This document shows positions 1,431-41,638 of a stretch of DNA of 44,460 bases, one piece after another. Made by a program: the position numbers and the translations under genes. The stretch is from a virus (taxonomy: Duplodnaviria > Caudoviricetes). The stretch covers positions 1 through 44,460 of the IMG/VR virus record IMGVR_UViG_3300037462_000270. One strand, given 5' to 3'. Below the pieces are notes generated by a model. It was not told the DNA's origin and made no database searches. It saw only the letters and a program-made list of their open reading frames with translations. Every line of letters begins with the position of its first letter. The first letter of the stretch is position 1.

Positions 1431-1711
1431 GACGCTCTCCGAATCCGAGAATCCTGCTGTGACTCTGATGACTGCAGACCGAGGGACGCTCGGCCGGTAA
1501 CGGTCAGGCGATAGATGCGAATGGCCTGGCCGGTGGAACGGAAGCCGGCGCCTTCGACGGACACGAGCCCGCGATCGACGGCCCGGCTGAGGACCTTGCT
1601 GGCGGCGTTGGGCGTGTGGCCCTGCGTGCGCGCCCAGGCAGAGACGGCCGAGCCGGAGACGCCGGCGCTGCCTGCTGTGGCGATCCAGATGAGGAGGCGG
1701 TGGCCCGTCAT
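1427..1711 (-). CDS. Winged-helix DNA-binding protein
   Basis: AASKVLSRAVDRGLV...RIYRLTVTGR wHTH-like pattern; ATGA-coupled to the methyltransferase. Confidence 0.6.
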   Translation of the reverse strand: MTGHRLLIWIATAGSAGVSGSAVSAWARTQGHTPNAASKVLSRAVDRGLVSVEGAGFRSTGQAIRIYRLTVTGRASLGLQSSESQQDSRIRRAS

Positions 1712-3093
1712 GCGACCCTCCGCGCTTCAGCCGCGACCTGCGCCAGCCGCGCCGCGATCCAGCGGATGACGGGCACAGTCACGGCGTTCCCGCACTGCTT
1801 GTAGCGAGGCGAGTCAGGGCAGACGCACGTCGCCGTGTCACCCTGCGCCGGGCAGAGGCAGGTCCAGCCGTCAGGGAATCCCTGCAGGCGTTCGCATTCC
1901 AGCGGCGTCAGACGGCGCACGCCCTGCGCCTGTACCGGGATGGAGACGAAGCCGTCGGCGCGGCTGTAGTCGCCTGCGGTCGTCTCAAGACATGGCGCAA
2001 GGTCAGGGACCAGGTTGTCGCTGCCGTCGCCTCTCGGGCTGCTGTGCCCGTGGTGCCCCATGCTGGCCGACAGCGACGACGCGACCTGCAGGTTGTCCAT
2101 GCAGGAGTTGTCCTGCCCGCCCTTGCCCATCGTCGTGGGCAGCGTGGCCGCGATGAACGGCACGCCGCCCGCCTCGTTGCCGTTGCCCGCGCGCAGCGTG
2201 CCCATTGGCCCGACGTTGGACCCGTGACGCTGGAAGACCGCCGGAGTCTGACTCGTGCTCAGGCCGGTCGTCGTGTCGCCGAAGCCGAACATCGTTTTGC
2301 CGCCGCTCTGCCAGTTGAACGCGACGGGAGCCTGCATGACGCCGTGACCCGTCCGGCTGCCCATGTTGGCGGCCAGGGTCGCGGCCGTGTCGTGCATGCG
2401 CAGGCCCGACTGCGACGACTGCCACGCCGTTACGATGTTCTCGTCGTCTTCGCCCCCGCGTCCGGGGACGTTGACGCCAGGCCGCGCAGAGCGTCCTCTA
2501 AGGGTTGCGGCAACACGCGCCCCCGCTTCGCCGCGCGCCGCAGAATCCCGGCCGCCGCGCGACTGCTCAAGTAGAACCGCGGCGGCACGGCCGAACTCGG
2601 CTCCAGCACGGCCGACAATGAACACGCGGCGGCGTCGCTGGGCGACTCCGAAGTACCGGCTGTCCAGAATCCTGTAGGCCCGGTCGTGAAACCCGCACTC
2701 GGCCAGCGTCGCAAGGACGGCGTGAAAGTCTCGTCCTCCGTGAGAGGTAAGGAGCCCTGGGACATTCTCAAGGACCACCCATTCCGGCCGCAGCTCCACT
2801 GCGATCCGCATCAGTTCGTAGAAGAGGCCAGAGCGCCCGCCGTCGAGCCCGGCGCGCTTGCCGGCCACAGAGAGATCCTGGCAAGGGAAGCCGCCGACCA
2901 GCACGTCGACCGGCGTCAGGTTGTGCGCGCCGACCGTTCGCACGTCGTCGAAGATCGGCACGGTCGGCCAGCGATGGCGCAGCACCTTGCGCGCCGCGGC
3001 GTCGGCCTCGACCTGCCACGCGACCGTAAAGCCGGCCTGCTCAAAGCCGAGGTCGAATCCGCCAATCCCGGAGAACAGCGATCCGACCGTCAT
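1708..3093 (-). CDS. C5 DNA cytosine methyltransferase
   Basis: Motifs LFSGIGG (I), GFPCQD (IV), ENV (VI), QRRRRVF (VIII), RRLTPLECERLQGFPD (IX), GNAV (X). Confidence 0.95.
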   Translation of the reverse strand: MTVGSLFSGIGGFDLGFEQAGFTVAWQVEADAAARKVLRHRWPTVPIFDDVRTVGAHNLTPVDVLVGGFPCQDLSVAGKRAGLDGGRSGLFYELMRIAVELRPEWVVLENVPGLLTSHGGRDFHAVLATLAECGFHDRAYRILDSRYFGVAQRRRRVFIVGRAGAEFGRAAAVLLEQSRGGRDSAARGEAGARVAATLRGRSARPGVNVPGRGGEDDENIVTAWQSSQSGLRMHDTAATLAANMGSRTGHGVMQAPVAFNWQSGGKTMFGFGDTTTGLSTSQTPAVFQRHGSNVGPMGTLRAGNGNEAGGVPFIAATLPTTMGKGGQDNSCMDNLQVASSLSASMGHHGHSSPRGDGSDNLVPDLAPCLETTAGDYSRADGFVSIPVQAQGVRRLTPLECERLQGFPDGWTCLCPAQGDTATCVCPDSPRYKQCGNAVTVPVIRWIAARLAQVAAEARRVA

Positions 3094-4022
3094 GCGTTCC
3101 TCACGGTCTCCGCGTCACGGTCGCGGTGCTCGGGCCAGCGGGCGCAGGTGGGCGTGTGGCTGCAGACGAACCGGTGCGGCTTGCCGCGGTAGTCCGGGTC
3201 GGTGACGGCGACCGGCTCCGGCGTCGTGCGTGGCGCCACGCCCCCACCGGTGAGGCCGACGACCTTGACCGGCTTGAGCGTCGTGACGCCCTGCCACTCC
3301 GCGAACCGGGCCCGCCAGAACTGGAGGTTCGTCTCGCCGATGGCGCGGCCGTTGAAGGCCCGTTCGGTCTCGGCGTACCACGCCCGCAGGGCCGCATCGT
3401 CGGGCGTGGCCATCCGCGAAACGAGCTCGTCGTGGAGGAACTGCGGCACGCTGAGGCCCTTGCGAGTGCCCTGCCAGGCGTTGGCCGGGGAGTGCGACCG
3501 CGCAGGCGTCGGGCCCCACGCCGTGACGTCAGGCCCGGTCGGTGGTGTGTGTGTCTCGGGCGCCGGAGGGGCCGATCCCCGTACGACGTCAGACACACTC
3601 TGGGTATCCGATCGGTGATCTGTATCTGCTACTGCTACTGACAGCTTCGCGTTTGCTTGACCGTTTGCTTCCGGTTTGCTTGACGCTTGCTTCGCGCGCG
3701 CAGCAACGCCCGCCTTCCCCGACTCGCTCCGTTTGCTGCTCACGAGTCGAGCCTTTGCTCGTTCCTCTTCTTCCCGCGGGTTGCGTCGCTTGTCGTCGGC
3801 GGAGACGGGCCACTTCGGCTCGAGCTGCGGCCAGATGCCGCGCCAGTCCTTCGGCTCCGCGCCGACCATGCGACGGAGGATCTCCGGATCGGCCGGGACG
3901 CCCTCGTCGAACCACGCCAGGATGAGCAGGTCGACGTAGGCGCCCCGTGCCGCGCAGGTGAGATGCCGCGTGGACGCGAGGTAGTCGCGCCCGTACAGCT
4001 TCATGTAGGGGTTTTCGGCCAT
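3090..4022 (-). CDS. DUF1376/YdaU-like replication initiator
   Basis: N-terminal PYMKLYGRDYLASTRHLTCAARGAYVDLLILAW...NPREEEE; internal iteron-like repeats. Confidence 0.8.
   Translation of the reverse strand: MAENPYMKLYGRDYLASTRHLTCAARGAYVDLLILAWFDEGVPADPEILRRMVGAEPKDWRGIWPQLEPKWPVSADDKRRNPREEEERAKARLVSSKRSESGKAGVAARAKQASSKPEANGQANAKLSVAVADTDHRSDTQSVSDVVRGSAPPAPETHTPPTGPDVTAWGPTPARSHSPANAWQGTRKGLSVPQFLHDELVSRMATPDDAALRAWYAETERAFNGRAIGETNLQFWRARFAEWQGVTTLKPVKVVGLTGGGVAPRTTPEPVAVTDPDYRGKPHRFVCSHTPTCARWPEHRDRDAETVRNA
3651..3737. repeat. Iteron-like direct repeats, putative replication origin
   Basis: GTTTGCTT at 3651, 3663, 3674; GCTTGCTT at 3685; GTTTGCT at 3731; 11-12 bp spacing inside the initiator gene. 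Confidence 0.7.
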
Positions 4023-4024
4023 GG

Positions 4025-4774
4025 CTACGCCACCTCACCAGACAGCAGCGAGCCCTGGCGGAGTCTCTGGACGATGACATCGCAGTAGGCCGGACTGAGT
4101 TCGATCCCGATGGCTTTCCGGCCGAGCCGCTTGGCCGCCACGAGCGTCGTGCCGCTGCCGGCGAACGGGTCAAGGATGATGTCGCCCTGGTCGGTGAAGT
4201 CGGACACAAGGTCGCGCATCAACGACTCAGGCTTCTGCGTCGTGTGGACACGCGGGTCGTTGCCGCCCCGATTGGTGACGATAGGGTGCGACCACACGGC
4301 GTGACGTCCGCCGCCGTTCCACCTCTTTCGCCCCTTTGGATGGCAGATCGTGATGGCTTCGAAGCCGACAGCGGGACGGTCGCCCGTGAACTGCGGCGTG
4401 GCTCCAATCTTGATCCACGCACCAGTTCGGCAGTAGTCCATGCGCTCAGCGACGAGAGCGCCCCGCCAATCCCCCGTGCTTTCGACGTCTGAGAACACAA
4501 GCACCCACCGCCTCACGATGCCGCCGAAGTGGCTGGCGCACACGGCGCGCAGTTCAGGCGAGAGCGACTCGAAGCCGAAGTCAACGGCACGAGAGAAGTC
4601 GGCCGCGCGCCCATCGCCAGCCAGTACACGCGCACCAGCCCTGCTCTTGCCGTGGACGTGCTCGCTGTAGGGCGGGTCGGTGATGATGTGATCGACCTGC
4701 GCCAGCGTCGGCAACACGTCCCGGCAATCGCCGCAGTAGAGCGTCACTGCTTCGTCCTGGTAGAACGGCTGCAT
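4025..4774 (-). CDS. N6-adenine/N4-cytosine DNA methyltransferase (beta class)
   Basis: LYCGDC, ITDPPY, HTTQKP, ILDPFAGSGTT, GIE; ATG at 4774. Confidence 0.92.
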   Translation of the reverse strand: MQPFYQDEAVTLYCGDCRDVLPTLAQVDHIITDPPYSEHVHGKSRAGARVLAGDGRAADFSRAVDFGFESLSPELRAVCASHFGGIVRRWVLVFSDVESTGDWRGALVAERMDYCRTGAWIKIGATPQFTGDRPAVGFEAITICHPKGRKRWNGGGRHAVWSHPIVTNRGGNDPRVHTTQKPESLMRDLVSDFTDQGDIILDPFAGSGTTLVAAKRLGRKAIGIELSPAYCDVIVQRLRQGSLLSGEVA

Positions 4775-4776
4775 GG

Positions 4777-5157
4777 CTACGCCGGCAGCGGCATCTGCCG
4801 CTCCGCCTCCGTCATGCGCTGCGTGCTGATGGTCTCGCCGGTGTCCGTGCGGACCTCGGTGACCGTGGTGGACACGAAGTCGTAGATCGTCTCCACGTCC
4901 GTCGGCCGGTACTCGGCCCCCGAGGAGACCACCAGGGCGAGTTCGGACCGCTTGGCGTTCAGGCTCTCGAGCTTCGCCTTGAGCTGCGCCTTGATCTCCT
5001 TCTGCGTGTCCTCCTCGGCCTCGAAATCCTGCTGCGCCTTCGCCATCGCGTCGGCGCGCTCGAGGCGCTCGTCCCGCGTCAGCAGGCAGCGCATCTGTCG
5101 GGTGTCGATGACGCGCCGCTCCGTGTGCGCGTGGTTCCACTGCTCGTTCTTGCCCAT
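4777..5157 (-). CDS. Hypothetical coiled-coil phage protein
   Basis: ATG at 5157 with GAGG SD; coiled coil then RTDTGE...RMTEAERQ. Confidence 0.7.
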   Translation of the reverse strand: MGKNEQWNHAHTERRVIDTRQMRCLLTRDERLERADAMAKAQQDFEAEEDTQKEIKAQLKAKLESLNAKRSELALVVSSGAEYRPTDVETIYDFVSTTVTEVRTDTGETISTQRMTEAERQMPLPA

Positions 5158-5167
5158 GGCTCGTTCC

Positions 5168-5641
5168 TCAGAAAGGGATGTCGTCGTCGGTGCCAGTGGT
5201 GCCAGGCAAGAAACTGCCGCCGTAGCTTTCGATCGGCGGCCCGCTGGCGTCGAAGGACGGCGGCTGCCACCCACTCCGCAGACGCGCTGCCCATCCACGG
5301 GCCCGCGCGGCGCCCTTGCGGTCATAGACGGCCTTGGGCTTGCCTGCCGCGGTCAGGGCGTTGCTCGCCTCGTTCTTGCGCGCGAAGTAGTCGAGCGTGT
5401 CGGCGAGCATGTCGAGGAACGCGGGCGAGCACTCCGACATGCGCCGCCCCTTCATGGGCTCGCCCGTCCAGTCTCGCGGGCTGACTCGCACCTCTTCGTC
5501 GCCCCACTGGCTGTCGAGGTCGCGATCATCAGCGATGGTCACCGACGCCAACGGCTGCGACGGCGATGTGATCGCGCCGGCCTGCAGCGCGGCGAGGATC
5601 TGTCGCAGCAGCGACAGCGATTCCGACTCGTACGGGGTCAT
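5168..5641 (-). CDS. Hypothetical protein with SSB-like acidic C-terminal tail (DDDIPF)
   Basis: ATGA-coupled to the exonuclease/SSAP gene; ends GTDDDIPF; KGRRMSECSPAFLDML resembles DUF3820-type motif. Confidence 0.75.
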   Translation of the reverse strand: MTPYESESLSLLRQILAALQAGAITSPSQPLASVTIADDRDLDSQWGDEEVRVSPRDWTGEPMKGRRMSECSPAFLDMLADTLDYFARKNEASNALTAAGKPKAVYDRKGAARARGWAARLRSGWQPPSFDASGPPIESYGGSFLPGTTGTDDDIPF

Positions 5642-7170
5642 GCGGCCCTCCCGTCGGTCAGTTCGTCCGGCGTGTAGAGGCCGAAGCAGACTTCGGGGTA
5701 CACCAGGCGCGCGAGCTTGGCCGACGCGCGGGCCACGAGCATGTCGGCCGGGAACGTGCCCCAGCCGCTCTTCTTCCACGCGGCGTCGTCCTTCTTCCAC
5801 GCGGCGCGGCCTTCCTCAATGGTGAACGACAGCGCGATCGGCGGGTCGCCGCGGCGCTTCGTTTCGAAGGTGGCGCGCGTCTCGGTACGCTCGGTGCAGC
5901 GGAAGTACTCGCACGTCGGCGACTGCATGACGAGCGCGCGGATCAGGTCGGCCGAGAGCGTCGGCTTGCCTTCAATGATGTGAATGCTGCGCAGCGACGC
6001 CATCGCCTGCAGGCCGAGCTCACGGCCCGCCAGGACCGTCGCCAGCACCGCCTGGGGCGTGCCGTAGGCCGAGAACTGCCGCGACTCGTGGACCCACTTC
6101 GCGAGCTGCCCCGCCTCGTTCAGCGTGCGCGGCTCGAGCTGCTTGGAGAACTCCACCGGCGCAACCACCGACAGCGCAGACGACTGCGCCGGCGCCGGCA
6201 TCGGCGTCACGTCGGCCATCGGCTTCGGCGCGGGCGCTGGCGGGGCCGGCGCTGGTGAGGGGGCGGGCGACTCGTCGACGACGGTCGCGGTGACGACTTC
6301 GGCAGGCTCGGACATGGCAGGGGCGGAGGTTTCTGGTTCAGCGAACATGGGCGAGGACTCAGCGGGCGCGACCACGCGCGGGCGCCACGCGTCCTCGAAC
6401 GGGAGCGGCACGTCGGTGCGCAGCGTGATGAGCTGTCGCGTCTCGTCGAGGAAGGGCGCGAACTCGAGCAGGGCGTCTGCCACCGCAGGCGTCAGGCCCA
6501 GGGCCCGCGCCGTCAGCGCATCGGCACCCGGACGAAGGTCGGCGTAGAGGGCGTCGAGGGTGCCGAACTTGGCGAGGATGGCCGCGGCCGTCTTCGGTCC
6601 GACGCCCTTCGCGCCCTTGATGTTGTCGGAGGCGTCACCGACCAGCGTGAGGTAATCGCGCATCTGTTCGGGCTTCACGCCGAACTTGGCGAAGACTGCC
6701 GCGTCGTCGATGACCGACCCGTCGCGCAGTGACTTCGCCGTGACGTGCCACCCCACCAACTGCAGGAGATCCTTGTCGGCGCTGGCGATGCTGACGAAGG
6801 TGTCTTCAGCGTCGTCGGCATCCTCGAGCGCGCGATGCACCGCCGTCGAGATGATGTCGTCAGCCTCGAAGCCCTTGACCGACCACACCGGGAAGCCTTC
6901 GGCCTTGAGCGTCTCGCACGCCAGGCCGATCTGGTGGTGCAGCGGCGCCTCCGACGGCGGGCGGTTCGCCTTGTAGGACTCCGACACCTCGTGACGGAAC
7001 GAACGCCCCGAGTCGCAGCACACGACCGTCGCGTCAGCGCCCTGCGCCAGTGACCGCACGCGGGCCACGGTCTGCGTGGCGGTGTAGTTCGGATCAGCCT
7101 CGTTGCCGCTCATCTTGTAGATGGGCACGGCGATGCTGCTGAGATCGATGAGCAAGAGCGTGCGCGACAT
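5638..7170 (-). CDS. 5'-3' exonuclease (PolI-N/FEN-like) fused to RecT-like single-strand annealing domain
   Basis: N-half LLLID, YKANR, EADD, SADKD, GDASDNIKGAKGVGPKTA; Pro/Ala linker; C-half GRELGLQAMASLRSIHIIEGKP...FTIEE...W..FPADMLVARA...YPEVCFGLYTPDEL. Confidence 0.85.
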   Translation of the reverse strand: MSRTLLLIDLSSIAVPIYKMSGNEADPNYTATQTVARVRSLAQGADATVVCCDSGRSFRHEVSESYKANRPPSEAPLHHQIGLACETLKAEGFPVWSVKGFEADDIISTAVHRALEDADDAEDTFVSIASADKDLLQLVGWHVTAKSLRDGSVIDDAAVFAKFGVKPEQMRDYLTLVGDASDNIKGAKGVGPKTAAAILAKFGTLDALYADLRPGADALTARALGLTPAVADALLEFAPFLDETRQLITLRTDVPLPFEDAWRPRVVAPAESSPMFAEPETSAPAMSEPAEVVTATVVDESPAPSPAPAPPAPAPKPMADVTPMPAPAQSSALSVVAPVEFSKQLEPRTLNEAGQLAKWVHESRQFSAYGTPQAVLATVLAGRELGLQAMASLRSIHIIEGKPTLSADLIRALVMQSPTCEYFRCTERTETRATFETKRRGDPPIALSFTIEEGRAAWKKDDAAWKKSGWGTFPADMLVARASAKLARLVYPEVCFGLYTPDELTDGRAA

Positions 7171-7766
7171 TAGCCCACCACCCGATCAGCGGGGCCGTCA
7201 GGGATGGCCGAAAGGATGCGGCGCACTTCGCCAACCGTCGTGCTGTCGTCGGCCCACTGCAGCGTTCGGAGCGTGACCAGCGCGGCAACGTCGATGTGCC
7301 CGACGGGCCGTCCAAAGCTGGCGAGCAGGAGATCGGCCATCCGCAGGCCATCGAGGATCTGTGTCTCGCGTTCCGCCATGGTCTCCGGTCTGGTACCCTT
7401 AAATGGTCTGTGCATCTGGCCCTCCTTGCAGGGCTGTTGTGAGCCGGAACGGTTGCCGCCGTTTCGGCTCGATTCGTCTGTGGGGTCTCTCCCCGCGTCA
7501 CGTCTGGTGCCTGGTGCGTCCTGGGGGACCTGCGCCAGTGGGCGACGTTCCCCGTTGCCCACTGGCGGGATGTCCTCCGGCCAGTCGCGGACGGGATGCG
7601 GCGCGGTGATCGCTTCAGCCACGCAGCGCGTGCAGTAGATCGCGTCGTTGTCGTGCCAGTCCTCCGCCGCCAGCGTCACGTCCCGCCCGCAGCCATCGCA
7701 GGCCAGCGTCAGCGGCGCATCACTGAACTCGCGCGGGTCCTCCGAGGTGTGCCAGGCCGACGCCAT
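7170..7766 (-). CDS. Hypothetical protein with N-terminal CxxC...CxxC
   Basis: CDGC...CTRC; ATG at 7766 overlaps upstream stop; an internal start near 7415 is also possible. Confidence 0.55.
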   Translation of the reverse strand: MASAWHTSEDPREFSDAPLTLACDGCGRDVTLAAEDWHDNDAIYCTRCVAEAITAPHPVRDWPEDIPPVGNGERRPLAQVPQDAPGTRRDAGRDPTDESSRNGGNRSGSQQPCKEGQMHRPFKGTRPETMAERETQILDGLRMADLLLASFGRPVGHIDVAALVTLRTLQWADDSTTVGEVRRILSAIPDGPADRVVG

Positions 7767-8995: not shown

Positions 8996-9358
8996 TCACT
9001 TCCCCGAATGCAGATTGAGGACTTTTGCGCTGGCGCGCGCCGTACCCTGCGAGGCATGCGAGTCCTGGCCGATTCCGCCGTGCGTCGTCTCCACCCATCG
9101 TTCGAGGTCTGCTCTCAGATAGAGGTTGGTCCGCCCAGCCTTGCAGGGCCGGAGGTCTTGCCGCTTGGCCCACATCCAGAAGGCGTTGGGCGAGGGGAAG
9201 CGCAGGTAGTCCGCCGCTTCGTCGAGCGAGAGATACCGCTGCGTCGCGAGCACGCGGTGATCGAAGCCCGCGCGCGACAGGTGGCCCGCCTGCGTCGGCG
9301 CCTGCGCTGCGCCCTGGCCGCGCTCACCGCTGAACTGGACCGCCTGTGCGCGCCTCAC
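8996..9358 (-). CDS. Excisionase-like HTH_17 DNA-binding protein
   Basis: YLSLDEAADYLRF...KAGRTNLYLRADLERWV. Confidence 0.75.
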   Translation of the reverse strand: MRRAQAVQFSGERGQGAAQAPTQAGHLSRAGFDHRVLATQRYLSLDEAADYLRFPSPNAFWMWAKRQDLRPCKAGRTNLYLRADLERWVETTHGGIGQDSHASQGTARASAKVLNLHSGK

Positions 9359-9585
9359 GATGCCTGCTCCAGCGCCACCGGAGTCGGGAACAGCGTGTCG
9401 ACCGCGACGCCAAAGTAGGCCGCGAGTGCCTCGCGCTCTTCATCGGTGGGGACGGCGTAGCCCTTTTCGATGCGCCAGTAGCGATCACGGGACATGCCGA
9501 TGGCCACCGAGACGTCGTACTGAGCGACCTCTTTTTCGGCCCGTCGCACCCGCAGGGTGTTCCGTGGGACGGTGTGCAGAGTCAT
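9355..9585 (-). CDS. Cro-like XRE-family HTH regulator
   Basis: LRVRRAEKEVAQYDVSVAIGMSRDRYWRIEKG...LAAYFGVAVDTLF; divergent from CI-like gene. Confidence 0.85.
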   Translation of the reverse strand: MTLHTVPRNTLRVRRAEKEVAQYDVSVAIGMSRDRYWRIEKGYAVPTDEEREALAAYFGVAVDTLFPTPVALEQAS

Positions 9586-9587
9586 GA

Positions 9588-9606
9588 TGTCCGTACTGTA
9601 CGGACA
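9588..9606. promoter_or_regulatory. Operator-like perfect palindrome
   Basis: TGTCCGTAC-T-GTACGGACA overlapping the -10 box of the lytic promoter. Confidence 0.75.
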
Positions 9607-9623
9607 GTCTGCACAGTTGTCAA
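9595..9623 (-). promoter_or_regulatory. Strong sigma70-type early lytic promoter (PR-like)
   Basis: Minus strand TTGACA (9623-9618), 17-nt spacer, TACAGT (9600-9595), just upstream of cro ATG 9585. Confidence 0.85.
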
Positions 9624-9652
9624 CAGAAATCGGAATCGGCAACGATCCCGGC

Positions 9653-9952
9653 GTGACGTGCTTCGGAGACCGCCTGTTCGCGCTCACGCGATCACTCGGT
9701 CATGACAACAATTCGGAGCTCGCGCGCCTGCTCGGCCTGAGCCGGCCACGCATCCAGGCGTTGTTGAACGCCATCTTCCCGCCCGACCTGCCCACCCTGC
9801 AGTTGTTGTCTCAGACCTTGGGCGTGCCCATCGAGGCGTTCCTCGAGGGCGTCCGCACGGCGAAGATGCCGCGGCCGGTCGATGCGCTGGCGGAAACGTT
9901 CCTGGTGTCGCGCCCCCCGCAGAAGCACGCGCAGAAGCGGAAGGTCGGATAG
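9653..9952 (+). CDS. CI-like XRE-family repressor (HTH only, no S24 peptidase domain)
   Basis: FGDRLFALTR...NSELARLLGLSRPRIQALL...PDLPTLQLLSQTLGVPIEAFL; GTG 9653 inferred as start. Confidence 0.75.
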   Translation: MTCFGDRLFALTRSLGHDNNSELARLLGLSRPRIQALLNAIFPPDLPTLQLLSQTLGVPIEAFLEGVRTAKMPRPVDALAETFLVSRPPQKHAQKRKVG

Positions 9953-10514: not shown

Positions 10515-11594
10515 GTGGGCGTCTACACCCGGAAGGATTCCCCGTGGTGGTGGCTGTGGCTCGAGCGCCCCGGACAGCCCGGGCTGCGCGAGCGCACCGC
10601 CATCCGCCACGAGGCGCCCACCGCGGCGCAGCGCAAGGCCCTCCGCGACCTGGCCGAAGCCGCGTACCGGGTCCGCATGGCCGAACTGGCGCGCGGCACG
10701 TACGCGCTCCCCGGCGCCCGCCCGGCCATCACGTTCGCGCGGTTCGCCGACTGGTACGAGGCGCACGTCAGCGCCCACCAGGCCGGCGCCGTCCGGGAGC
10801 GAGAAATCCTCACCACCCTGCGCGCCACCTTCGGGCCGCTGGCGCTGGCCGACGTCACCCGCGACCGCGTCCGCGAATGGATGACCCGCCGCAGTCAGAC
10901 CGTGCGGCCCGCCACCGTCAACCGAGAGCTCGACCTGCTCAAGTCCCTCCTGCGCGAGGCCGTCCCTGCCTACCTCGAGACGTCCCCCGTGGCCGGCATG
11001 CGCCGGCTGCCCGCGAAGCGCCCCGCCGGCACCGACGCCGCCGACGACGAGGTCCGGGTCCTCACCCACGAGGAGGAGACCCGCCTGCTCGAGGCCCTGA
11101 GCGACCCCAGAGACCGCGCGCTCGTCCTGGCCGCGATCGACACCATGGCCCGCCTCAGTTCCCTGCTCGGCCTCACCTGGCGGGACGACCGTGGCGCGCA
11201 TCTCGTGTTCCGACGCACCAAGAACGGGACGACGTACAAGGTGCCGATCAGCACCCGCCTGCGCACCGCGCTGGACGGCATGCCCGACCGAGACCCCGTC
11301 TACGTGTTCGCCCACCGCCGCACGGCCACGCTGGCGCGCGACTGGCGCGGGGTTGTCGGCAACGTCCTCGAGCGGGCCTGTGCCCGGGCTGGCGTGACGT
11401 TCGGCCGTGAGCACGGCGGCATCACGTTCCACAGCTTCCGGCACACCGGGGCGTCGCGCATGATCGCCGCCGGCGTCGACCTGCGCACCGTGCAGGAGCT
11501 CGGCGGCTGGTCGGACATCCGGCTCCTGATGCGGTACGTGCATCCCACCAGCGAGGCGAAGCGCCGGGCCGTCGAGACCGTCAGCGAACGATGA
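10515..11594 (+). CDS. int: Tyrosine recombinase / phage integrase
   Basis: ATVNRELDLLK; catalytic R (TMARLSSL), K (TKNG), HSFRH, LGGW, Y (LMRYVH); adjacent tRNA-derived attP. Confidence 0.95.
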   Translation: MGVYTRKDSPWWWLWLERPGQPGLRERTAIRHEAPTAAQRKALRDLAEAAYRVRMAELARGTYALPGARPAITFARFADWYEAHVSAHQAGAVREREILTTLRATFGPLALADVTRDRVREWMTRRSQTVRPATVNRELDLLKSLLREAVPAYLETSPVAGMRRLPAKRPAGTDAADDEVRVLTHEEETRLLEALSDPRDRALVLAAIDTMARLSSLLGLTWRDDRGAHLVFRRTKNGTTYKVPISTRLRTALDGMPDRDPVYVFAHRRTATLARDWRGVVGNVLERACARAGVTFGREHGGITFHSFRHTGASRMIAAGVDLRTVQELGGWSDIRLLMRYVHPTSEAKRRAVETVSER

Positions 11595-33814: not shown

Positions 33815-35173
33815 TTACAGCGCGTGCGCCGCGACCCGGTTCGCGGTGATGCCTTCCCACCGGATGTTCTTCGGCGGGTTGAAGCAGTGGAAGTTCTCGA
33901 AGATGTAGTAGAAGGCGGTGTACTCGTCGTACCCGTCCACCCACTTCAGGACGTCGCCGCCCTCGTCGGCCCAGCCGCCGTTCTCTTCGAAGTACCGGAC
34001 CCAGGTGTCCTTGGTGAAGTTGAAGAGCATCCCGTAGGGGGCATCGCGCTCCGCGAGCCACGGGATGTCGCCGAACGTCACCTTCTTGTTCTTCTTGCCG
34101 CCCTGCTTGGCCGCGACCGTGCCGCCGTCGGGGCTGCGGAGGTCGGCTCCGCTGTAGCGGCGGTCGGCCTCGAGCAGCGCCAGGTAGGCGCGGCGCTCGT
34201 CGAAGAAGGAGGCGAACAGATCGCCCCCGTCGCCGCCGATGCGGACCGCGCGCATGTCGAGGCCCTGCTGGATGGCATCGAGGGACAGCGCGCCGACGCC
34301 CGTGATGACATGCGACCGCTCCACGGCGTACGTGGTCCGGTTGATGTCGTGGTAGTCGTTGACGTAGGTGCCGTCGTCGCAGCCGCTCAGGATGCCTTCC
34401 GGCTCCTGGTCGTAGGAGTTCTGCGTGGCCGACTGCGCCAGCACGAGCAGGTCGTTGTTGGCGACCGCGAACGTGCCGATCGTCTCGGCGGTGACGTCGG
34501 TGCCGTCGCTGCCGACCGAGGTCACGCGGAACGTGCCCTTGACGGTCGTCGGCGAGGAGCCGTCGAGCACCGCGATGAACTGGCCGTCGGTGGCGTCACC
34601 GTAGAGGAACCGGTTGCCGTTGTGCGTGCCGACGATGCCGCCCGGGTCCATCACCTCGAGCGTGCCGCCGTTGCTCACCGTCTGGGCGCCGTTGACGCGG
34701 GCCAGGATGCCCTTGCCCCAGCCCCAGGCGATGCGGTTGCGGAAGTGGGCGAGGTCGTCGACCAGCAGCTCCATCTCCGTCGCCGCGACGCGCTTGTAGG
34801 CGCCCTTGTTGTTGCGGCTCGAGAGCATGATCGTGCGGTCGAACCCGACGCGTCCGTAGACGTTGCGGATGCCGATCTTGCTCTCTTCCCACTTCTGCCG
34901 CCCGGTGCGCGGGATGAGACCACGCGACGGGATCGAGCCCATCGAGTAGTTCCGGCCGATGCGCTTCGGGACGACCTTGTACTTGCCCTGCCACGACTCG
35001 TCGACCACCTCGGTGGTCATCATGTCGAGCATAGGCGTTTCGTCCTGCAGCGAATTCATGATGACTTCGCTGTTGTAGTCCTCCTTGAGGAGGCTGGACA
35101 TGCTGGTTTCGGTCGCCGGGGCATGGAGCACGGTGGCGAACGCGCCGGCGGTGAACAGACGATGCGTGAACAT
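33815..35173 (-). CDS. Major capsid protein
   Basis: 452 aa after portal and scaffold; LLKEDY...GKYKVVP..GRN; GGAG SD; followed by strong hairpin. Confidence 0.85.
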   Translation of the reverse strand: MFTHRLFTAGAFATVLHAPATETSMSSLLKEDYNSEVIMNSLQDETPMLDMMTTEVVDESWQGKYKVVPKRIGRNYSMGSIPSRGLIPRTGRQKWEESKIGIRNVYGRVGFDRTIMLSSRNNKGAYKRVAATEMELLVDDLAHFRNRIAWGWGKGILARVNGAQTVSNGGTLEVMDPGGIVGTHNGNRFLYGDATDGQFIAVLDGSSPTTVKGTFRVTSVGSDGTDVTAETIGTFAVANNDLLVLAQSATQNSYDQEPEGILSGCDDGTYVNDYHDINRTTYAVERSHVITGVGALSLDAIQQGLDMRAVRIGGDGGDLFASFFDERRAYLALLEADRRYSGADLRSPDGGTVAAKQGGKKNKKVTFGDIPWLAERDAPYGMLFNFTKDTWVRYFEENGGWADEGGDVLKWVDGYDEYTAFYYIFENFHCFNPPKNIRWEGITANRVAAHAL

Positions 35174-35191
35174 GGAACGCTCCGGTGTGAC

Positions 35192-36199
35192 CTACGCGCC
35201 GCGCAGAAGGCGGCGGGTCACGTCCTTAACGGTTTCTCGTTTCGGCGACCGCGCGCCCGCCGGAATCCCGCCCGTGAAGGCGGCCGGTCGAGCCCCACGC
35301 GTCGCCGCGGCGGCTGAGGCCTGCTGCACGAGTGCCGCCGCAGCCTGCTGCTGCTGCTTGCGGAACCGCTGCAAGGGCTTCCCGTACTTCTCCAGCAATT
35401 TCGGGATGAACGTCTTGGGCGCCGCCAGCACGTCCTGGCGGTTGTTCTTCTGTGCCCACTCGAACAGGCCGACCACTTCGCGCTCGAGGAGCGCCTGGCC
35501 GTCCTCGTCGTAGTCCTTCCCGAACTCCGAGATCGCCGACTTCCACGTCTGCACTCGCTGCTGCGACTGCTGGCGCTGTCGGTCCGTCTCGATCCCCTTG
35601 CGCCACTGCAGGACGTCGTGCAGACCGTGCCCGTAGTTCTGCTTCAGCTCGTGAAGCTCGCGATGCAGGGCCAACACCATCTGGTGCGAGTCATGCATCC
35701 ACTTCCCGGCCTCGTCGTCCGAGGCGAACGGTGGCGGAGGAATCGCTGGCGGGGTGTACTGGGGCCGCTGCACGGGCGCCTGTCGCGCCTGTTCAGCAGG
35801 GCGACCCGGAGCCGTGACGATGCGCTGCAGCAGTTCCGGCTCCGCCTCGAGGCGAGCCATGAGCGACTGATGATTGCGCTGCGTCACGATCAGGTCGTCG
35901 AGGTCGAGGCCCGCGTCCCGGATACGCCGCACCAATGTGCGGTTCTCCTTCGCGAACTTCCCGTCACGCCGACGATTGCGGATCAGATTCCGCAGGGCCG
36001 CCCGGTCCTGTACCAGGCGCTCCTCGTCGTAGACGTCCTCGTCCTCGTCATCGAGATCACCGCCCGCCGGCGCGTCAACACGCGCCGCAGGTGACGCCTC
36101 GGATGCCGATGCAACCGGAGTCACATCGGCAGGGGCCGGGCTTGCGGTCTCAGCGCCGGTATCACCACCGGACGCCCCACCGATCAGCTCGTCAGCCAT
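35192..36199 (-). CDS. Scaffolding protein
   Basis: Acidic disordered N-terminus, helical coiled coil, between portal and capsid. Confidence 0.7.
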   Translation of the reverse strand: MADELIGGASGGDTGAETASPAPADVTPVASASEASPAARVDAPAGGDLDDEDEDVYDEERLVQDRAALRNLIRNRRRDGKFAKENRTLVRRIRDAGLDLDDLIVTQRNHQSLMARLEAEPELLQRIVTAPGRPAEQARQAPVQRPQYTPPAIPPPPFASDDEAGKWMHDSHQMVLALHRELHELKQNYGHGLHDVLQWRKGIETDRQRQQSQQRVQTWKSAISEFGKDYDEDGQALLEREVVGLFEWAQKNNRQDVLAAPKTFIPKLLEKYGKPLQRFRKQQQQAAAALVQQASAAAATRGARPAAFTGGIPAGARSPKRETVKDVTRRLLRGA

Positions 36200-36262
36200 T
36201 GGACCCTCGAAGGGGGAGGGGGAAAGAGGCGCACGCCCGAACTGCGATGTCCTGGCCGGAAA

Positions 36263-38659
36263 TCATCGAAGCCCCCCTGTGGACGTGCGCCCCATTGAGG
36301 CCGGCGGCGGCGTCGCGCCCCCACCAGCCGGGACCGGCACCAACGGCGTCATCACGCCGTTGGCGGTCAGTTCGTCGATCGACGGCCCCGTGGGGCCCTG
36401 CGGCGGCGCGGCACCAGCCGGCAGCAGGGCGCCGCTCTGGACGGCCGCCTCGAGAGGATTGGCCTGCGGCTGCGCGCCGGCCGGGACAAGGGCGCCGCTC
36501 TGCACGGCCTGCTCCACCGCGGCCCCATCGGGGCCCGTCGGTTCGGCGGGCGGGGCCGGCGGCTGCATGCGCTGCTGGAGTTGCTGGACGTGCGCCAGCA
36601 TGGCCTCGAAGACCGGCGGATTCTGCGCCGCGATAGCTTCGGCCTGCTCGCCCTTGAGGAACGTCGTCTTGAGCAGCAGGTGCAGCGGCAGGTTGATCAG
36701 CGGGTCCGGCAGCGGCGGCGGGATGTCCGCAGGGCCCTGCGCGGCCTTCCACCGATCGAGTTCGCGCGCGACCTGCCGCTTGTCCTCGTTGGTGGACTTC
36801 TTGAACTCGCCGAGCGCCATCTCCGTCAGCAGGCGGAGCGCCACCTCCGGATCGGCCGCGGGCTGCAGGATGCCGAACTCCACGGCCTTCTGGATCCGCA
36901 CCAACTGCATCGCCGGCGACTTCGGCCACGCCGACATCGGCTCGATCGCGATGTCCACCTGGCCGAGCAGGTCGGCATTGGTGAACTGCGAGATCTCCCA
37001 CTGCCCGTTCTCGCCCTTGACGCGGCGGAACCGCGGCGCCCAAGCGGACTGGCGGGCGTACTGCAGCAGCAGGCGGGCCTGGCGCTTCTCGAACTCGATC
37101 GCGTGATCCAGCGGCGTCCGGAACGCCGCCATGCCGCGCTCCTGCATGATCTCGACTTCGCCGAGCGTCGGATCGCCGGACGGACGGTCGCCCATCAGCA
37201 CGGCATTCAGCCGGCTGACCTTCTCCATGGACGCGTCGATCTGCTCGAGGCGCTTGTAGAGCCCCTCCGGCGGATTCTGGCCGCGCTCCGTGATCGGATG
37301 GTCGCCTGGCGTCAGCGACCGGAACCGGTTGAACGCGCCCGGGGCGCCCGAGGGCGTGTCCTCGAGCGTGACACTCGCCGGCAGCCAGGTCGTCGGCGCC
37401 GCGCAGTGCATCAGGATGAGTTCGATCAGCGACTCGACCCGGTTGCGGGACTTCTGCATCGGGACCAGGTCGTCAGCCGGCGGCTTGCCGTGCGGACTGT
37501 GCGGGGCCGTGGCGAACGTGCGGATGATGATCGACTTCTGCGGCCGGCCGTTCTCGTCGACCAGGGGCAGCGGGCCCTCTTCGACGAGCACCTCTCCCAC
37601 CATGACGCCGTGCAGGCCCTCCGGCAGCGACAGGTCCGGCTCGTCGACCGGATCGTGCTGCAGCCGGTAGACCGTGACCATGTTGTCGGTGCCGCGGCTC
37701 GAGGTGCCGTTGCCGTGCGGGCCCGACATGCCGCGGAGCGTCGTGGCGTACTGCGCCGCGAGGCTGCCCGTGCGAGACCGCCCGGTCTGCTGCCGGATGG
37801 CCTCCGCGTAGTCGGGCCACAGCCGGCACGCCTGCTCGATCGGCATATCCTGATGCCCGAGCACCCACGCGCTCTGCTGCTCGTCGGCCACCGTCGCCGT
37901 CGACGGGAGCGAGAACTCGAAGGACGACCACAGGTCCGCGCAGAACTTGCCGCGGGGCATGTTGACGTGCTCCGGGATGAACGTTGTGGGGTCCACATCG
38001 ACCGCGAGGTTCGTGCTGCCGCAGTGCGGGCAGACCGTCTCGGGTTCGACCTCCGGATTGCCCCGCATCGCCTCGAGGTCCACGCCGCCCGTCTCGGTCA
38101 GGTCCACGACCTTCCCGCAGCCCTCCTCCTGGCAGCGCAGCAGCGGCACCGGCTCCGTGCCGTGCTTCTCGTCGGCGTCGAAGTAGTAGACGACCGCGAC
38201 CTTGTCGATCAGCGTGATGAGCTGATTGATGCGCGGCTTGAGCGACGCATACCCGATCTCGTCCTCGAGAACCGGGACCGCGTCCTCCGCCACTTCGGCC
38301 GTCGCGCGGTCCTCCTCGTCGTCCGTCATCGGGACGTACGTCTTGCCCGGAACCGACTGGTTCAGGAGGGAGGCGATGCCGTCGACGTGCACCGCGAACA
38401 TGTTGGTGACACAGCGCGGGACATACGCCGGCAGGCCCGCCTCACCGTCGAAGGGGCGCGGGACGAACTGCTTGCGGTCCTCGTGAAAGACCGACCACTG
38501 CCCCTCCTCACCGCCCCGCCAGAACATCGTGTTTTCGAGGTTCGTGCGGTCGCGGCCGGCGCGGGCGTGCTGGCCTTTGGCGTCGTCAATGCACCGCTGG
38601 ATCAGGCGCTGGGCCTGTTCGCGGCGCTGCTCGGGCGTGGCGTCCTTCGACCGGCTCAC
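36263..38659 (-). CDS. Portal protein with zinc-ribbon insertion
   Basis: 798 aa between terminase and scaffold; HGKPPADDLVPMQKSRN; CQEEGC...CPHCG insert; Pro/Gln-rich tail. Confidence 0.85.
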   Translation of the reverse strand: MSRSKDATPEQRREQAQRLIQRCIDDAKGQHARAGRDRTNLENTMFWRGGEEGQWSVFHEDRKQFVPRPFDGEAGLPAYVPRCVTNMFAVHVDGIASLLNQSVPGKTYVPMTDDEEDRATAEVAEDAVPVLEDEIGYASLKPRINQLITLIDKVAVVYYFDADEKHGTEPVPLLRCQEEGCGKVVDLTETGGVDLEAMRGNPEVEPETVCPHCGSTNLAVDVDPTTFIPEHVNMPRGKFCADLWSSFEFSLPSTATVADEQQSAWVLGHQDMPIEQACRLWPDYAEAIRQQTGRSRTGSLAAQYATTLRGMSGPHGNGTSSRGTDNMVTVYRLQHDPVDEPDLSLPEGLHGVMVGEVLVEEGPLPLVDENGRPQKSIIIRTFATAPHSPHGKPPADDLVPMQKSRNRVESLIELILMHCAAPTTWLPASVTLEDTPSGAPGAFNRFRSLTPGDHPITERGQNPPEGLYKRLEQIDASMEKVSRLNAVLMGDRPSGDPTLGEVEIMQERGMAAFRTPLDHAIEFEKRQARLLLQYARQSAWAPRFRRVKGENGQWEISQFTNADLLGQVDIAIEPMSAWPKSPAMQLVRIQKAVEFGILQPAADPEVALRLLTEMALGEFKKSTNEDKRQVARELDRWKAAQGPADIPPPLPDPLINLPLHLLLKTTFLKGEQAEAIAAQNPPVFEAMLAHVQQLQQRMQPPAPPAEPTGPDGAAVEQAVQSGALVPAGAQPQANPLEAAVQSGALLPAGAAPPQGPTGPSIDELTANGVMTPLVPVPAGGGATPPPASMGRTSTGGLR

Positions 38660-38973
38660 GTCTCGGACATGGCCGGCTCAGGAAAGCCCTCACGGTTGTC
38701 ACGGATGGACGTGACTGCCAGGGCACGGAAGACGCTCGCAAGAGGGGGAGCCTGCGAGGGGGCCGAGGACTCGGCCACCGGGGAGACGATGGCACCGGAC
38801 CGCGCGAAGACCTGGTCACGGAACCGCGCATACTCGCGCGTCGTCGTGGCCAGGCGCTCACGGAGGTCGCTGCACTCCCGTTCCGTCAGTTCCAGACGCG
38901 CCTCGGCCACCGCCAGCTCGCGCAGGAGAGTGGACCGCAACGGACGGCGGAACAGCGTGAAGGGGAACGGCAT
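38656..38973 (-). CDS. Hypothetical coiled-coil protein
   Basis: Coupled to portal start; GAGG SD. Confidence 0.6.
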   Translation of the reverse strand: MPFPFTLFRRPLRSTLLRELAVAEARLELTERECSDLRERLATTTREYARFRDQVFARSGAIVSPVAESSAPSQAPPLASVFRALAVTSIRDNREGFPEPAMSET

Positions 38974-39000
38974 AGCGCCGATCCTCACGCTGGTCGCGTG

Positions 39001-39348
39001 TCAGGCTGGAGTCAATGTTGAGGTGACGAGTTCCGGGATCGCCAGCCAGTGTGTCGGAGGCTGCGCGCGCTGCGCGGCCGGACTCTTCTGGCCATACGCC
39101 CAGTACGGCCCGAGCCACGAGTCATCCACCCACCAGCCGACCTCCGGCTGCGGCCACGCGGGCGAGTGCAGCAGGACGAACTCGTGAGGGTCCTGTTTCG
39201 CCGTGGCGATCGGCTGCCACTGCAGCGTCGCCGCAGCCAGCCGGATCGCCATGTGGTACGCGCACTCATGGAGCAGATGGTCGCCCTCGAACAGGCACAG
39301 GCACCCGCATCGCTTGGCCGCGACCTGCTCGTCAGTCAGTGGGTCCAT
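39001..39348 (-). CDS. DUF551-like protein
   Basis: WQPIATAK...PTHWLAIP. Confidence 0.75.
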   Translation of the reverse strand: MDPLTDEQVAAKRCGCLCLFEGDHLLHECAYHMAIRLAAATLQWQPIATAKQDPHEFVLLHSPAWPQPEVGWWVDDSWLGPYWAYGQKSPAAQRAQPPTHWLAIPELVTSTLTPA

Positions 39349-39535
39349 CGGCGTCTCCGTCAAAAGTGATCGTCGCCACCGTCCGCCGCACGAGCACGTC
39401 CACCACGAGCTCGCCGTCCTCGTACCGGAACCCACCCACCCCGATCACTTCGCCCGACACGGGGACCACGACAGCGCCCCCGTTGGCGCGCACCGGCAGG
39501 CCCAGGATCGCGGCGTCCCACTCGGCTTTCGTCAC
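39332..39535 (-). CDS. Hypothetical protein
   Basis: GTGA-coupled 67-aa ORF. Confidence 0.5.
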   Translation of the reverse strand: MTKAEWDAAILGLPVRANGGAVVVPVSGEVIGVGGFRYEDGELVVDVLVRRTVATITFDGDADGPTD

Positions 39536-39780
39536 TCTGGCACCACGCTCGTGATCATCCAGGCCACCCGGTCCGCCCGCTGCGCTTCGACCTTCGCCAT
39601 GCCTCGCGCGATGCTCTCCAGCGTGAGCACCTGCCCCGGCGCGACGGCCATGTTGCGGCCCACGGACTGCGACCAGCAGAACGTGCTCCGGTTGATGTCC
39701 GGCACCGGCGCCGGCAGCGGGACCTGCGTGGCCACCGCCGCGCCGGCCATCCGCGCGAAGAACTGTCGTCGGTTCATCAT
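39532..39780 (-). CDS. Small protein with twin-arginine-like N-terminus
   Basis: MMNRRQFFARMAGAAVA. Confidence 0.6.
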   Translation of the reverse strand: MMNRRQFFARMAGAAVATQVPLPAPVPDINRSTFCWSQSVGRNMAVAPGQVLTLESIARGMAKVEAQRADRVAWMITSVVPE

Positions 39781-40145
39781 GGCCGCACCCGCGCCTGGTC
39801 AATCCGCGCATCGACGTCGTAGTCCCGCAGACCCGTGATGCCCGCCGCAGAACGTTCGACGTACGGCGGAAGATGCGCCAGCATCGCCACAATCGAAGGC
39901 CCGCCCCGAATGTCCGTGATGACTTCCCAGAAGTGCGCGTCCGTCGACGCCTTGCCCACGGCCTCGCACGCGGCATCCCGGCAGGTCACACGGCCCATCG
40001 CCAATCCCGGCCGATAGACGGCGAACTCTCCCGCCTCGTGCCCACCGAAGAAGCGACCGCACACCGGGCACGGCATCCAGAAGTAGCCGAACACCGCCGC
40101 ATACAGACGACTGAGCCACCGCCATCGGTTCATCGTTTGCCTCAC
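39777..40145 (-). CDS. Hypothetical protein with CPVC motif
   Basis: FGYFWMPCPVCGRFFGGHE...C...C; coupled to terL stop. Confidence 0.6.
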   Translation of the reverse strand: MRQTMNRWRWLSRLYAAVFGYFWMPCPVCGRFFGGHEAGEFAVYRPGLAMGRVTCRDAACEAVGKASTDAHFWEVITDIRGGPSIVAMLAHLPPYVERSAAGITGLRDYDVDARIDQARVRP

Positions 40146-41638
40146 CACCGCCCGAACGTGCCGTTGCGCGGCGCCTTCGGGCTGAAGACCTTTTCCACCC
40201 GCTCCGCTTCCTTCCGGCTCAGCGGGTCCAGCCGCGCCAGTTCCTTCTGGAGCAGCACATCCTCCGGCTTCACCGGGCGCCCGACCGGCCGCGCCTCAAA
40301 CAGCCGGCCGACACTCTCGAACGCGTGATCGTCACTCTCGCCATCGGCCACGTTCGGATTCTTCTTGTCCCACGGTACGCGTGGCACCGTGCGAATCAGG
40401 TTGGGGCAGGCCGTCGTGCACGACCAGTGCGGCGTCCCATGCGGCCCCACCGCCAGCGCCGCCATCCATCGCTGTGGACGTGACAGCCGCACCGCCGGAC
40501 CACCCGCGCCCTGCATCAGCGGCACATGCAACGACTGCCCGAGGATGTCATCGTAGACCTCCGCAATCGTCTTCGCTATCCCCATCTCGCGCCGGCTGCC
40601 GTACATGTACGGTTCGAGCACGACGAACTCAGGACGGGCCATGCCGCGGCCCATCAGGGACGCGATCGCGTCGCGCATTCGCTCGGCCTGGTCGACGTCG
40701 CGGACCTCCTGCGCGTACCACTCGTAGAACGTGCGAACGTGCCCGTTCGGCAGCGCCGCGTGTAGGTAGGCCGCCCACGGCGCCCCATAGCCGTAGTCCA
40801 CCGACCCGTAGATGACCGAGCCCTTCGGCGGGAACCACTGCGGGTCGTCCATGACGTGCCACGGGATGATCTGCCCGAGTCGACACCCCGCCGCCAGGAG
40901 TTGCTCGTCGTCAGGCCCGACCGTGTGTGTCGGCTTCCACATCGCACCGAGAATGTAGCCCGCGTTGGACTCGAAGGAGGCTTCGTACTCCTGCAGGTAC
41001 ATGCGGAGCTGGCCGCGCTGCTCGTACTGCCGACGAATTGAGAGCAACTCCTCCTGCTTGTCCCGGTACAGCGGGCAGTCGGCCGTCGTAAACGACCACG
41101 AGGCCCAATCGGGATAGGCGGCGTCCTGCCCCTGCTGGTACAGCGAGTGGAAGTGGTCGAAGCCCTTCGGCGTCCCGAGGATGAGCGCCCACCCGCCCGT
41201 GTCGAGCAGTGACGGCAGGATGATCTCGTCCCAGAGGTTCTCTTTCGTGTCGGCGTACTCGTCGATGACGATGCCGGCGATGCCGCGCCCGCGCAGGCTG
41301 TCTGGATGGTCAGCGCCGTGGAGCGCGATGACCGACCCGTTGCGCAGTTCGATCTCGAGCCGGCTCTCGTTCGGCGGACGCGCCAGCCACGACCGCGGCA
41401 CCAGCGTGACGAGTGTCTTCCACGCGATGTCGCGGGCCTGCTTCAGTTCCGGGGCGAGGTACCAGTAGCGCCCCGGCTTGGCCGCCGCCGACAGCAGAAG
41501 GCAGATGACGCCGAGCACCGTCTTGCCCCAGCGTCGACCAGCCGCGACGACCCGAAATCGCTTCGGCGACTCGAACACCTGGCCCTGCTGTGCGTGCAGC
41601 CGGATCAGCCGCTCGCCGGAGACTGTCGGCGCGCTCAC
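40142..41638 (-). CDS. terL: Terminase large subunit
   Basis: AAGRRWGKT Walker A, LRG, IVIDE Walker B, GTPKG, nuclease VDYG and DDHAFES. Confidence 0.95.
   Translation of the reverse strand: MSAPTVSGERLIRLHAQQGQVFESPKRFRVVAAGRRWGKTVLGVICLLLSAAAKPGRYWYLAPELKQARDIAWKTLVTLVPRSWLARPPNESRLEIELRNGSVIALHGADHPDSLRGRGIAGIVIDEYADTKENLWDEIILPSLLDTGGWALILGTPKGFDHFHSLYQQGQDAAYPDWASWSFTTADCPLYRDKQEELLSIRRQYEQRGQLRMYLQEYEASFESNAGYILGAMWKPTHTVGPDDEQLLAAGCRLGQIIPWHVMDDPQWFPPKGSVIYGSVDYGYGAPWAAYLHAALPNGHVRTFYEWYAQEVRDVDQAERMRDAIASLMGRGMARPEFVVLEPYMYGSRREMGIAKTIAEVYDDILGQSLHVPLMQGAGGPAVRLSRPQRWMAALAVGPHGTPHWSCTTACPNLIRTVPRVPWDKKNPNVADGESDDHAFESVGRLFEARPVGRPVKPEDVLLQKELARLDPLSRKEAERVEKVFSPKAPRNGTFGRW

Follow-up and report, generated by a model that had tools for sequence, protein, structure and literature searches.

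The window analysed in this study is the whole 44,460-base record of an uncultured Caudoviricetes phage held in IMG/VR (IMGVR_UViG_3300037462_000270; 96% complete according to CheckV, approximately 69% GC, terminal repeat absent), and our interest centers on one gene within it, P0001, which encodes a flap endonuclease (FEN)-type 5' nuclease, a disordered linker and a predicted single-strand annealing protein (SSAP, hereafter annealase) domain in a single chain (Table 1). The short gene that follows it is referred to below as the partner. The original prediction, made from the sequence alone, had described one uninterrupted open reading frame (ORF) with a Pol I-type nuclease at about residues 1-260, a Pro/Ala linker, and a RecT-like SSAP at about residues 340-505. 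The frame indeed runs through 510 codons without a stop, and the linker is borne out by an AlphaFold model of the full-length protein, in which two confident domains are separated by a low-confidence segment, with predicted local distance difference test (pLDDT) values below 50 at residues 283-306 and 318-334, indicating predicted disorder.

Table 1. Features of the fusion locus and of the remaining window (aa, amino acids; positions are those of the window).
Feature	Position	Strand	Basis or remark
FEN-linker-annealase fusion gene, 510 aa (P0001)	5638..7170	minus	uninterrupted ORF, relatives, independent contig
Pol I/T5-type FEN 5' nuclease domain, aa 1-262	6385..7170	minus	Pfam, alignment, conservation
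Pro/Ala/Glu-rich disordered linker, aa about 263-337	6160..6384	minus	AlphaFold confidence and alignment
Annealase (SSAP) domain, predicted Red-beta/RecT fold, aa 338-506	5653..6159	minus	PHROG and predicted fold
In-frame ATG (M275), possible internal start	6346..6348	minus	weak: 3-nt Shine-Dalgarno match only
GGAGG Shine-Dalgarno-like site, 5 nt ahead of partner ATG	5647..5651	minus	
ATGA: partner start overlaps fusion stop	5641-5638	minus	
Partner, 157 aa, acidic-aromatic tail (DDDIPF)	5168..5641	minus	no known family
C5 methyltransferase	1708-3093		
DUF1376 initiator	3090-4022		
N6/N4 methyltransferase	near 4025-4780		by eye
cro/repressor-like pair	near 9355-9952		by eye; with sigma-70-like site at 9623-9595
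Tyrosine integrase	10515-11594		
Head/portal/terminase genes	33815-41638		
RusA-like resolvase	43284-44081		

The fusion is neither peculiar to this assembly nor rare among its relatives. A contig from another study spans positions 5100-7300 in one piece, gap-free and with 49 substitutions; 40 of the differences (47 listed) were examined, and the 31 inside the fusion ORF cause four amino-acid changes and no stop. With residues 335-510 as sole query, a search retrieved 761 proteins of 280-893 aa, and both FEN Pfam domains are present in 116 of the 120 best listed (query included). The best 150 relatives, taken as 50%-cluster representatives, comprise 85 full fusions, 19 proteins with a partial FEN, 27 with neither FEN nor tail, and 19 unfused annealases with a C-terminal extension. 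In an alignment of the relatives (A1; 114 of 120 rows, six short or near-duplicate rows having been dropped), identity to the query is 68% in the annealase domain, 54% in the FEN and 15% in the linker, whose length varies from 51 to 198 aa. A quick tree of the annealase domain with 69 fused and 27 unfused sequences requires two changes and is compatible with one origin; natural pairs of split FEN and annealase genes of this clade were sought among the relatives, and none turned up. That two genes were joined artificially by assembly or gene calling is a next to negligible prospect: FEN-only or annealase-only pieces of the clade do occur in some databases, but of the ten annealase-only pieces traced, out of 27, nine come from contigs shorter than 1.9 kb and the remaining one shares a cluster with a protein of 512 aa, several of the ten FEN-only pieces viewed have out-of-frame-looking tails, and hundreds of independent full-length fusions are available. 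The comparative data and the gap-free contig rule out such an artefact, and the fusion gene is genuine. In the same contig, 19 of the 40 examined differences cluster at window positions 5661-6046, in the annealase-coding part. All 19 are silent, and their clustering suggests that this part is a mosaic patch between phages that are nearly identical.

The gene is widespread in uncultured phages. Among 50,697 cultured-phage records, none has a match covering 80% of the protein, and in 238 only the annealase domain has a distant counterpart. A genome scan (29 of 64 parts scanned) matched a single short contig of a metagenome-assembled genome (locus L057).

The N-terminal part passes the cut-offs of both Pfam families of Pol I-type 5'-3' exonucleases, 5_3_exonuc_N (PF02739) at residues 5-164 (E 2e-26; 93.1 bits, cut-off 34.3) and 5_3_exonuc (PF01367) at residues 165-259 (E 4e-21; 75.7 bits, cut-off 40), and is alignable to Taq Pol I, ExoIX and T5 exonuclease. 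The two metal sites are preserved (acidic residues D9, D53, E102, D104, D105, D132, D134, D179 and D182), and the arch motif Y66-K67-x-x-R70 and the helix-three-turn-helix (H3TH) are present, as the original prediction had it for the acidic motifs and the H3TH. Among the 85 full-length fusions, all nine acidic positions are D or E in 84, while K67 and R70 are kept in every one. ExoIX has G, I and S in the alignment at the positions of D134, D179 and D182, and passages of a FEN review list it with metal site A only and with flap activity only (PMC5499597). Since the fusion keeps the site B carboxylates that flap-only ExoIX does not, its FEN resembles the exonuclease-competent FENs and, judged by its residues, looks intact and of the exonuclease-competent type. 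The ExoIX/Xni family profile is not reached (108.9 bits against a cut-off of 261), and neither is the DNA polymerase I equivalog (165.8 bits against a cut-off of 720, with the match confined to residues 24-276), so that the protein is not Pol I; a possible origin of the FEN from Pol I has a tree support of only 62.

For the C-terminal part, PHROG 561 and 4171, both annotated as RecT-like single-stranded DNA (ssDNA) annealing proteins, match residues 370-506 (E 1e-17 and 3e-12, respectively). The AlphaFold model of residues 335-510 has a pLDDT of 91, and in Foldseek its top match is Red-beta (7UJL; E 9.7e-6), the sole PDB match with E below 0.001, followed by LiRecT (7UB2; E 3.3e-3). The same two structures lead an exhaustive VIA search, Red-beta with Z 8.9, root-mean-square deviation (rmsd) 3.7 and 137 aligned residues, and LiRecT with Z 7.3, rmsd 6.8 and 150 aligned residues. 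In addition, the structural neighbours in BFVD that bear functional names are RecT/Bet proteins, the annealase-domain profile matches the RecT domain of phage phiV10 (E 9e-7), and W470 is W or Y in 85 of 85, and R488 is kept in 84 of 85, full-length fusions. The RecT-like SSAP proposed earlier is thus upheld by the PHROG matches and the predicted fold, and we regard the domain as a divergent subfamily with a predicted Red-beta/RecT fold rather than as a clear sequence-level member of PF03837.

What the fusions do not have is an annealase tail. The window protein stops four residues past the annealase domain, and all 85 full fusions stop within 0-17 residues of it, whereas the 19 unfused relatives continue for 75-178 residues. 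In Red-beta, as described in excerpts of two papers, residues 1-177 suffice for annealing, and the C-terminal domain (CTD) binds Exo and the ssDNA-binding protein (SSB) (PMC9512822; PMC11611040). Given this role of the Red-beta CTD, and fusions without a CTD beside tailed unfused relatives, the simplest reading would be that the linker, as a covalent connection, has taken the place of the annealase's docking domain.

A chain of this kind raises the question of stoichiometry, since recombination is stated, in part of a review, to require annealase in excess over exonuclease (PMC11611040), which a 1:1 fusion cannot give unless a shorter product is made. Across 55 distinct fusions, ATG codons in the linker cluster 8-27 codons past the FEN (58, where codon-order shuffles give 24.6 +/- 4). 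Of 100 linker ATGs, 22 show a Shine-Dalgarno match of at least 5 nt, compared with 8.3 in the same shuffles and with 1 of 163 ATGs in the FEN and 1 of 317 in the annealase. Family members with a strong site of this type in the linker include L179, L189, L048, L055 and L064. The 22 observed do not stand out from synonymous-codon shuffling (19.3 +/- 2.8), however, and an acidic protein motif may account equally well for the enrichment; for this reason, and given the 3-nt match at M275 of the window, we treat an internal start as a lead only.

The fusion and the PD-(D/E)xK exonucleases are mutually exclusive. Local profiles of YqaJ or PD-(D/E)xK nucleases match in none of 60 distinct fusion loci, of which 31 extend at least 3 kb on both sides (whole window included), and none of 106 neighbouring ORFs from 30 fusion loci matches a PD-(D/E)xK-type Pfam family or a DNA polymerase (106 of 121, the 15 that are or overlap the partner having been left out). 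Loci that carry the partner gene and no fusion have a YqaJ, PDDEXK_1 or DUF2800 nuclease in 21 of 25 cases, adjoining RecT, ERF, unfused members of the fusion's own annealase subfamily, or an unassigned gene, and two more have an exonuclease by the local profiles; here upstream genes were scanned in 25 of 35 loci (omitting cut-short and some other ones) and in 90 of 120 candidate ORFs, the distal ones being dropped. At L223:6279-7121 and L229:6500-7204, genes in the annealase position precede a PD-(D/E)xK nuclease and match PHROG 7838/2489, labelled 'exonuclease'; they may be unrecognised annealases.

FENs of the same lineage also occur on other annealases. The plus-strand gene L064:7941-10142 encodes a FEN that an extended linker connects to a Sak4-like AAA_24 annealase (E 2e-19) and is followed by a canonical SSB, and L067:8001-9728 and L066:7683-9734, likewise on the plus strand, join a FEN to yet another SSAP family (PHROG 3290, E 3e-49). 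The FENs of all three group with those of the fusions (FastTree support 91); two short FEN proteins belong there as well. One FEN lineage on three annealase types has a job that is hard to explain except as annealing-linked recombination and, together with the exclusion of PD-(D/E)xK exonucleases, this makes it likely, as far as gene content can tell, that in phage single-strand annealing a FEN has assumed the part of the exonuclease. L064 has an in-frame ATG just ahead of its Sak4 domain, with GGAGGAG upstream, and L070:7848-9428 (plus strand) carries a more distant phage FEN fused to a domain of the uracil-DNA glycosylase superfamily.

On the strength of domains, residues, predicted fold, conservation and gene context, we consider it likely, with a probability of roughly two in three, that the single chain is the phage's whole exonuclease-annealase recombinase. 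The tethering of resection or flap removal to annealing, which the original prediction had proposed, gains comparative support from the exonuclease exclusion and from the FENs on other annealases. In such a machine, the annealase domains would oligomerise on ssDNA as Red-beta does, carrying the FENs on flexible tethers of 50-200 residues, and the FEN would degrade the 5' strands from DNA ends or from nicks, its hold on the annealase oligomer substituting for the ring-derived processivity of lambda Exo and RecE. The annealase would directly receive the 3' strand thus exposed and pair it with a single strand of homologous sequence, either another resected end or a lagging-strand gap, whereupon the same FEN would cut the displaced 5' flap at the junction and leave a nick for host ligase. 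The acidic-tailed partner, in the usual position of an SSB gene, probably helps access to ssDNA or host factors.

Several points weigh against this reading. Known FENs act mostly in primer removal and flap cutting, as parts of a review have it (PMC5499597), whereas recombineering exonucleases are described in portions of another as ring-shaped and processive (PMC11611040), which a monomeric FEN would not be; the SSB contact of Red-beta, located in the CTD that the fusion does not have, is needed in vivo according to the same excerpts (PMC11611040). Pfam RecT (PF03837) is weak, at 19.4 bits for the whole protein and 22.9 for the domain with a cut-off of 24, and the C-terminal alignment, when compared by HH with seven canonical RecT proteins from neighbouring loci, gave no match (probability 0.1%; the query profile retained full-length columns and the template was shallow), so that it is PHROG and the predicted fold that carry the annealase assignment. 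Even there, the best VIA Z of 8.9 only slightly exceeds the Z of 7-8 of unrelated models. Moreover, the non-fusion loci themselves supplied the sequences for the local exonuclease profiles, and about one event probably gave rise to all 60 fusion loci; with the loci being kin and the profiles drawn from the positive set, 0 of 60 counts as one displacement event, not as sixty.

An unlikely account is that the FEN only clips 5' flaps while ssDNA comes from host nucleases of the RecBCD, AddAB, AdnAB or RecJ type or from replication gaps, leaving the annealase to pair the strands. FENs are indeed presented as structure-specific flap cutters in the passages of PMC5499597, a monomeric FEN would lack the ring of lambda Exo or RecE described in part of PMC11611040, and a single RecT gives double-stranded DNA (dsDNA) editing without a phage exonuclease, as reported in excerpts of PMC12054835. 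Yet the carboxylates of site B, missing in flap-only ExoIX, are kept in the fusions, and the fusion occupies the place of a resecting PD-(D/E)xK exonuclease and is never found beside one. More improbable is a role as replication accessory, in which the FEN would serve primer removal and Okazaki maturation (compare T4 RNase H, T5 D15 and T7 gp6), the annealase would act at the fork in restart or concatemer formation, and their fusion would merely co-localise the two activities. N-terminal domains of Pol I give the best sequence matches in NCBIfam and the PDB, and a DUF1376 initiator and DnaB replication genes lie downstream of the fusion in the window and in some related loci, but no DNA polymerase is found in the 106 neighbouring ORFs or in the window ORFs scanned, such phages would presumably use the host replisome and Pol I, and both the exclusion of recombination exonucleases and the three fused annealase types point to recombination.

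We hold it very improbable that the C-terminal domain is a nucleic-acid binder like the double-stranded RNA-binding domain (dsRBD) that targets the nuclease, in place of an annealase. Many dsRBD domains score Z 5-6.8 in VIA, and such a reading would fit the sub-cut-off Pfam RecT score and the negative HH comparison; the dsRBD matches, however, span approximately 60-75 residues, against 137-150 of 176 for Red-beta and LiRecT, the PHROG, BFVD and phiV10 RecT matches given above all point to RecT-like proteins, and the unfused relatives pair with PD-(D/E)xK exonucleases.

The partner has 585 relatives and no Pfam or PDB sequence match, and none of 120 family members matches PF00436 (SSB); an Atlas model (predicted TM score, pTM, 0.59) retrieves only unnamed clusters above TM 0.5. 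The tail ends in F or W with at least two acidic residues among the last ten in 85 of the 120, and in PF in 35. It had been suggested that fusion and partner form a two-gene system, and this holds in part: the partner ORF is real and overlaps the fusion, but it is not dedicated to it: of the 27 fusion-seeded loci that extend at least 1.5 kb downstream, 20 have the partner and seven lack it, and it is also found without the fusion. Partner-seeded loci have a fusion in 33 of 68 cases, an annealase only in 11 (three cut by the contig start) and neither in 24, and at L050, without a partner, a canonical SSB directly follows the fusion. Members of the family adjoin YqaJ plus RecT, PD-(D/E)xK plus RecT-like, and ERF plus PD-(D/E)xK pairs (L193, L207, L218, L221, L224, L235, L236 and others). 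From its gene neighbourhoods, the family appears to be an unnamed general accessory that marks phage recombination modules. We also considered the partner as a split-off annealase CTD and dropped the idea, as its profile matches none of 150 annealase relatives; it is further disfavoured because the partner co-occurs with unfused annealases already equipped with a CTD. By eye, a related gene of approximately 300 aa directly follows the fusion in L137, L140, L146, L150, L157 and L166, with no Pfam match in the two scanned. A DEDDh 3'-5' exonuclease lies between fusion and partner at L003:7762-8349 (Pfam RNase_T), with similar starts seen by eye in L143, L148 and L162, and could trim 3' tails beyond the reach of the FEN. 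Elsewhere in the window, profile scans identified an integrase, terminase, portal, major head protein and RusA-like resolvase, among other genes.

In its predicted mode of action, the fusion is like lambda Red (Exo plus Beta) and the RecE plus RecT of Rac (EATR/SynExo), which likewise combine a 5'-3' exonuclease with an annealase of the Red-beta/RecT fold, encoded in the early operon of a phage that has an integrase, with an SSB or a protein with an acidic tail coming next. It is not a member of that group: Red and RecET are each two proteins from adjacent genes, with a ring-forming PD-(D/E)xK nuclease and an annealase that has a C-terminal Exo/SSB-binding domain, whereas the fusion is one chain without such a domain, and its nuclease, a FEN with a PIN-like fold, is of a different superfamily, as had been predicted. 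Both metal sites and the nuclease domain are shared with the Pol I 5' nuclease, T5 D15, T4 RNase H and T7 gp6, which are stand-alone or polymerase-joined and mainly serve primer removal, unlike the annealase-joined fusion. In recombination, T7 gp6 acts together with gp2.5, and Gibson assembly uses T5 exonuclease for end resection. In eukaryotic single-strand annealing, a FEN-superfamily nuclease, Exo1, works with a Rad52-superfamily annealase, Rad52; these are separate proteins with an XPG-type nuclease, unlike the phage fusion. EXO1 is listed in the FEN superfamily in part of a review (PMC5499597).

A single-polypeptide exonuclease-annealase is not without precedent. A natural single chain is known from phiV10 p37 (YP_512292.1), annotated as a RecE-RecT fusion, with DUF3799 at residues 21-254 and RecT at residues 310-490, which differs in having a PD-(D/E)xK nuclease, a canonical RecT and approximately 96 aa past the RecT domain; in excerpts of one paper it appears among sequences left out of a seed set (PMC8766483). 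No FEN-annealase fusion was found in the full-text literature searched, a scope that subscription papers, for the most part, and supplements fall outside, nor in the portions of PMC12926913, PMC8093625, PMC12054835, PMC5499597, PMC9512822, PMC11611040, PMC8766483 and PMC2896510 available to us. What appears new within this scope is a FEN as the nuclease of a single-chain exonuclease-annealase, and what was known is the single-chain architecture itself. UniProt A0A6J5MUB0 (uncultured Caudovirales, 462 aa) has the same annealase domain in its predicted structure (57% identity) and its only annotation is 'PIN_53EXO domain containing protein', the annealase half being unrecognised. The shared domain, and a name that refers to a 5'-3' exonuclease, make it very likely that this is the same fusion. 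Recombinase surveys would miss the fusion family, because databases label it as 5'-3' exonuclease only.

A bolder proposal, which we advance tentatively and regard as possible yet doubtful, is that these genes represent a third class of phage exonuclease-annealase, with a FEN cassette on three swappable annealases, processivity gained by riding on the annealase oligomer, an internal start in the linker that gives additional annealase free of nuclease, a stand-in for SSB without the oligonucleotide/oligosaccharide-binding (OB) fold, and independence of the host SSB tail. The exonucleases used in phage recombineering are, in passages of a review, ring-shaped PD-(D/E)xK enzymes with hand-over to the annealase through its C-terminal domain (PMC11611040). 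A natural one-chain version makes the need for ring-based processivity testable, as well as the setting of the exonuclease-to-annealase stoichiometry and, with no CTD present, the requirement for SSB-tail recognition. The fusion is a candidate for single-gene dsDNA recombineering and could give a compact genome-editing tool. If the third-class proposal is true, proteins without a CTD would not depend on recognition of the host SSB tail, which is a known limit on porting recombineering between species.

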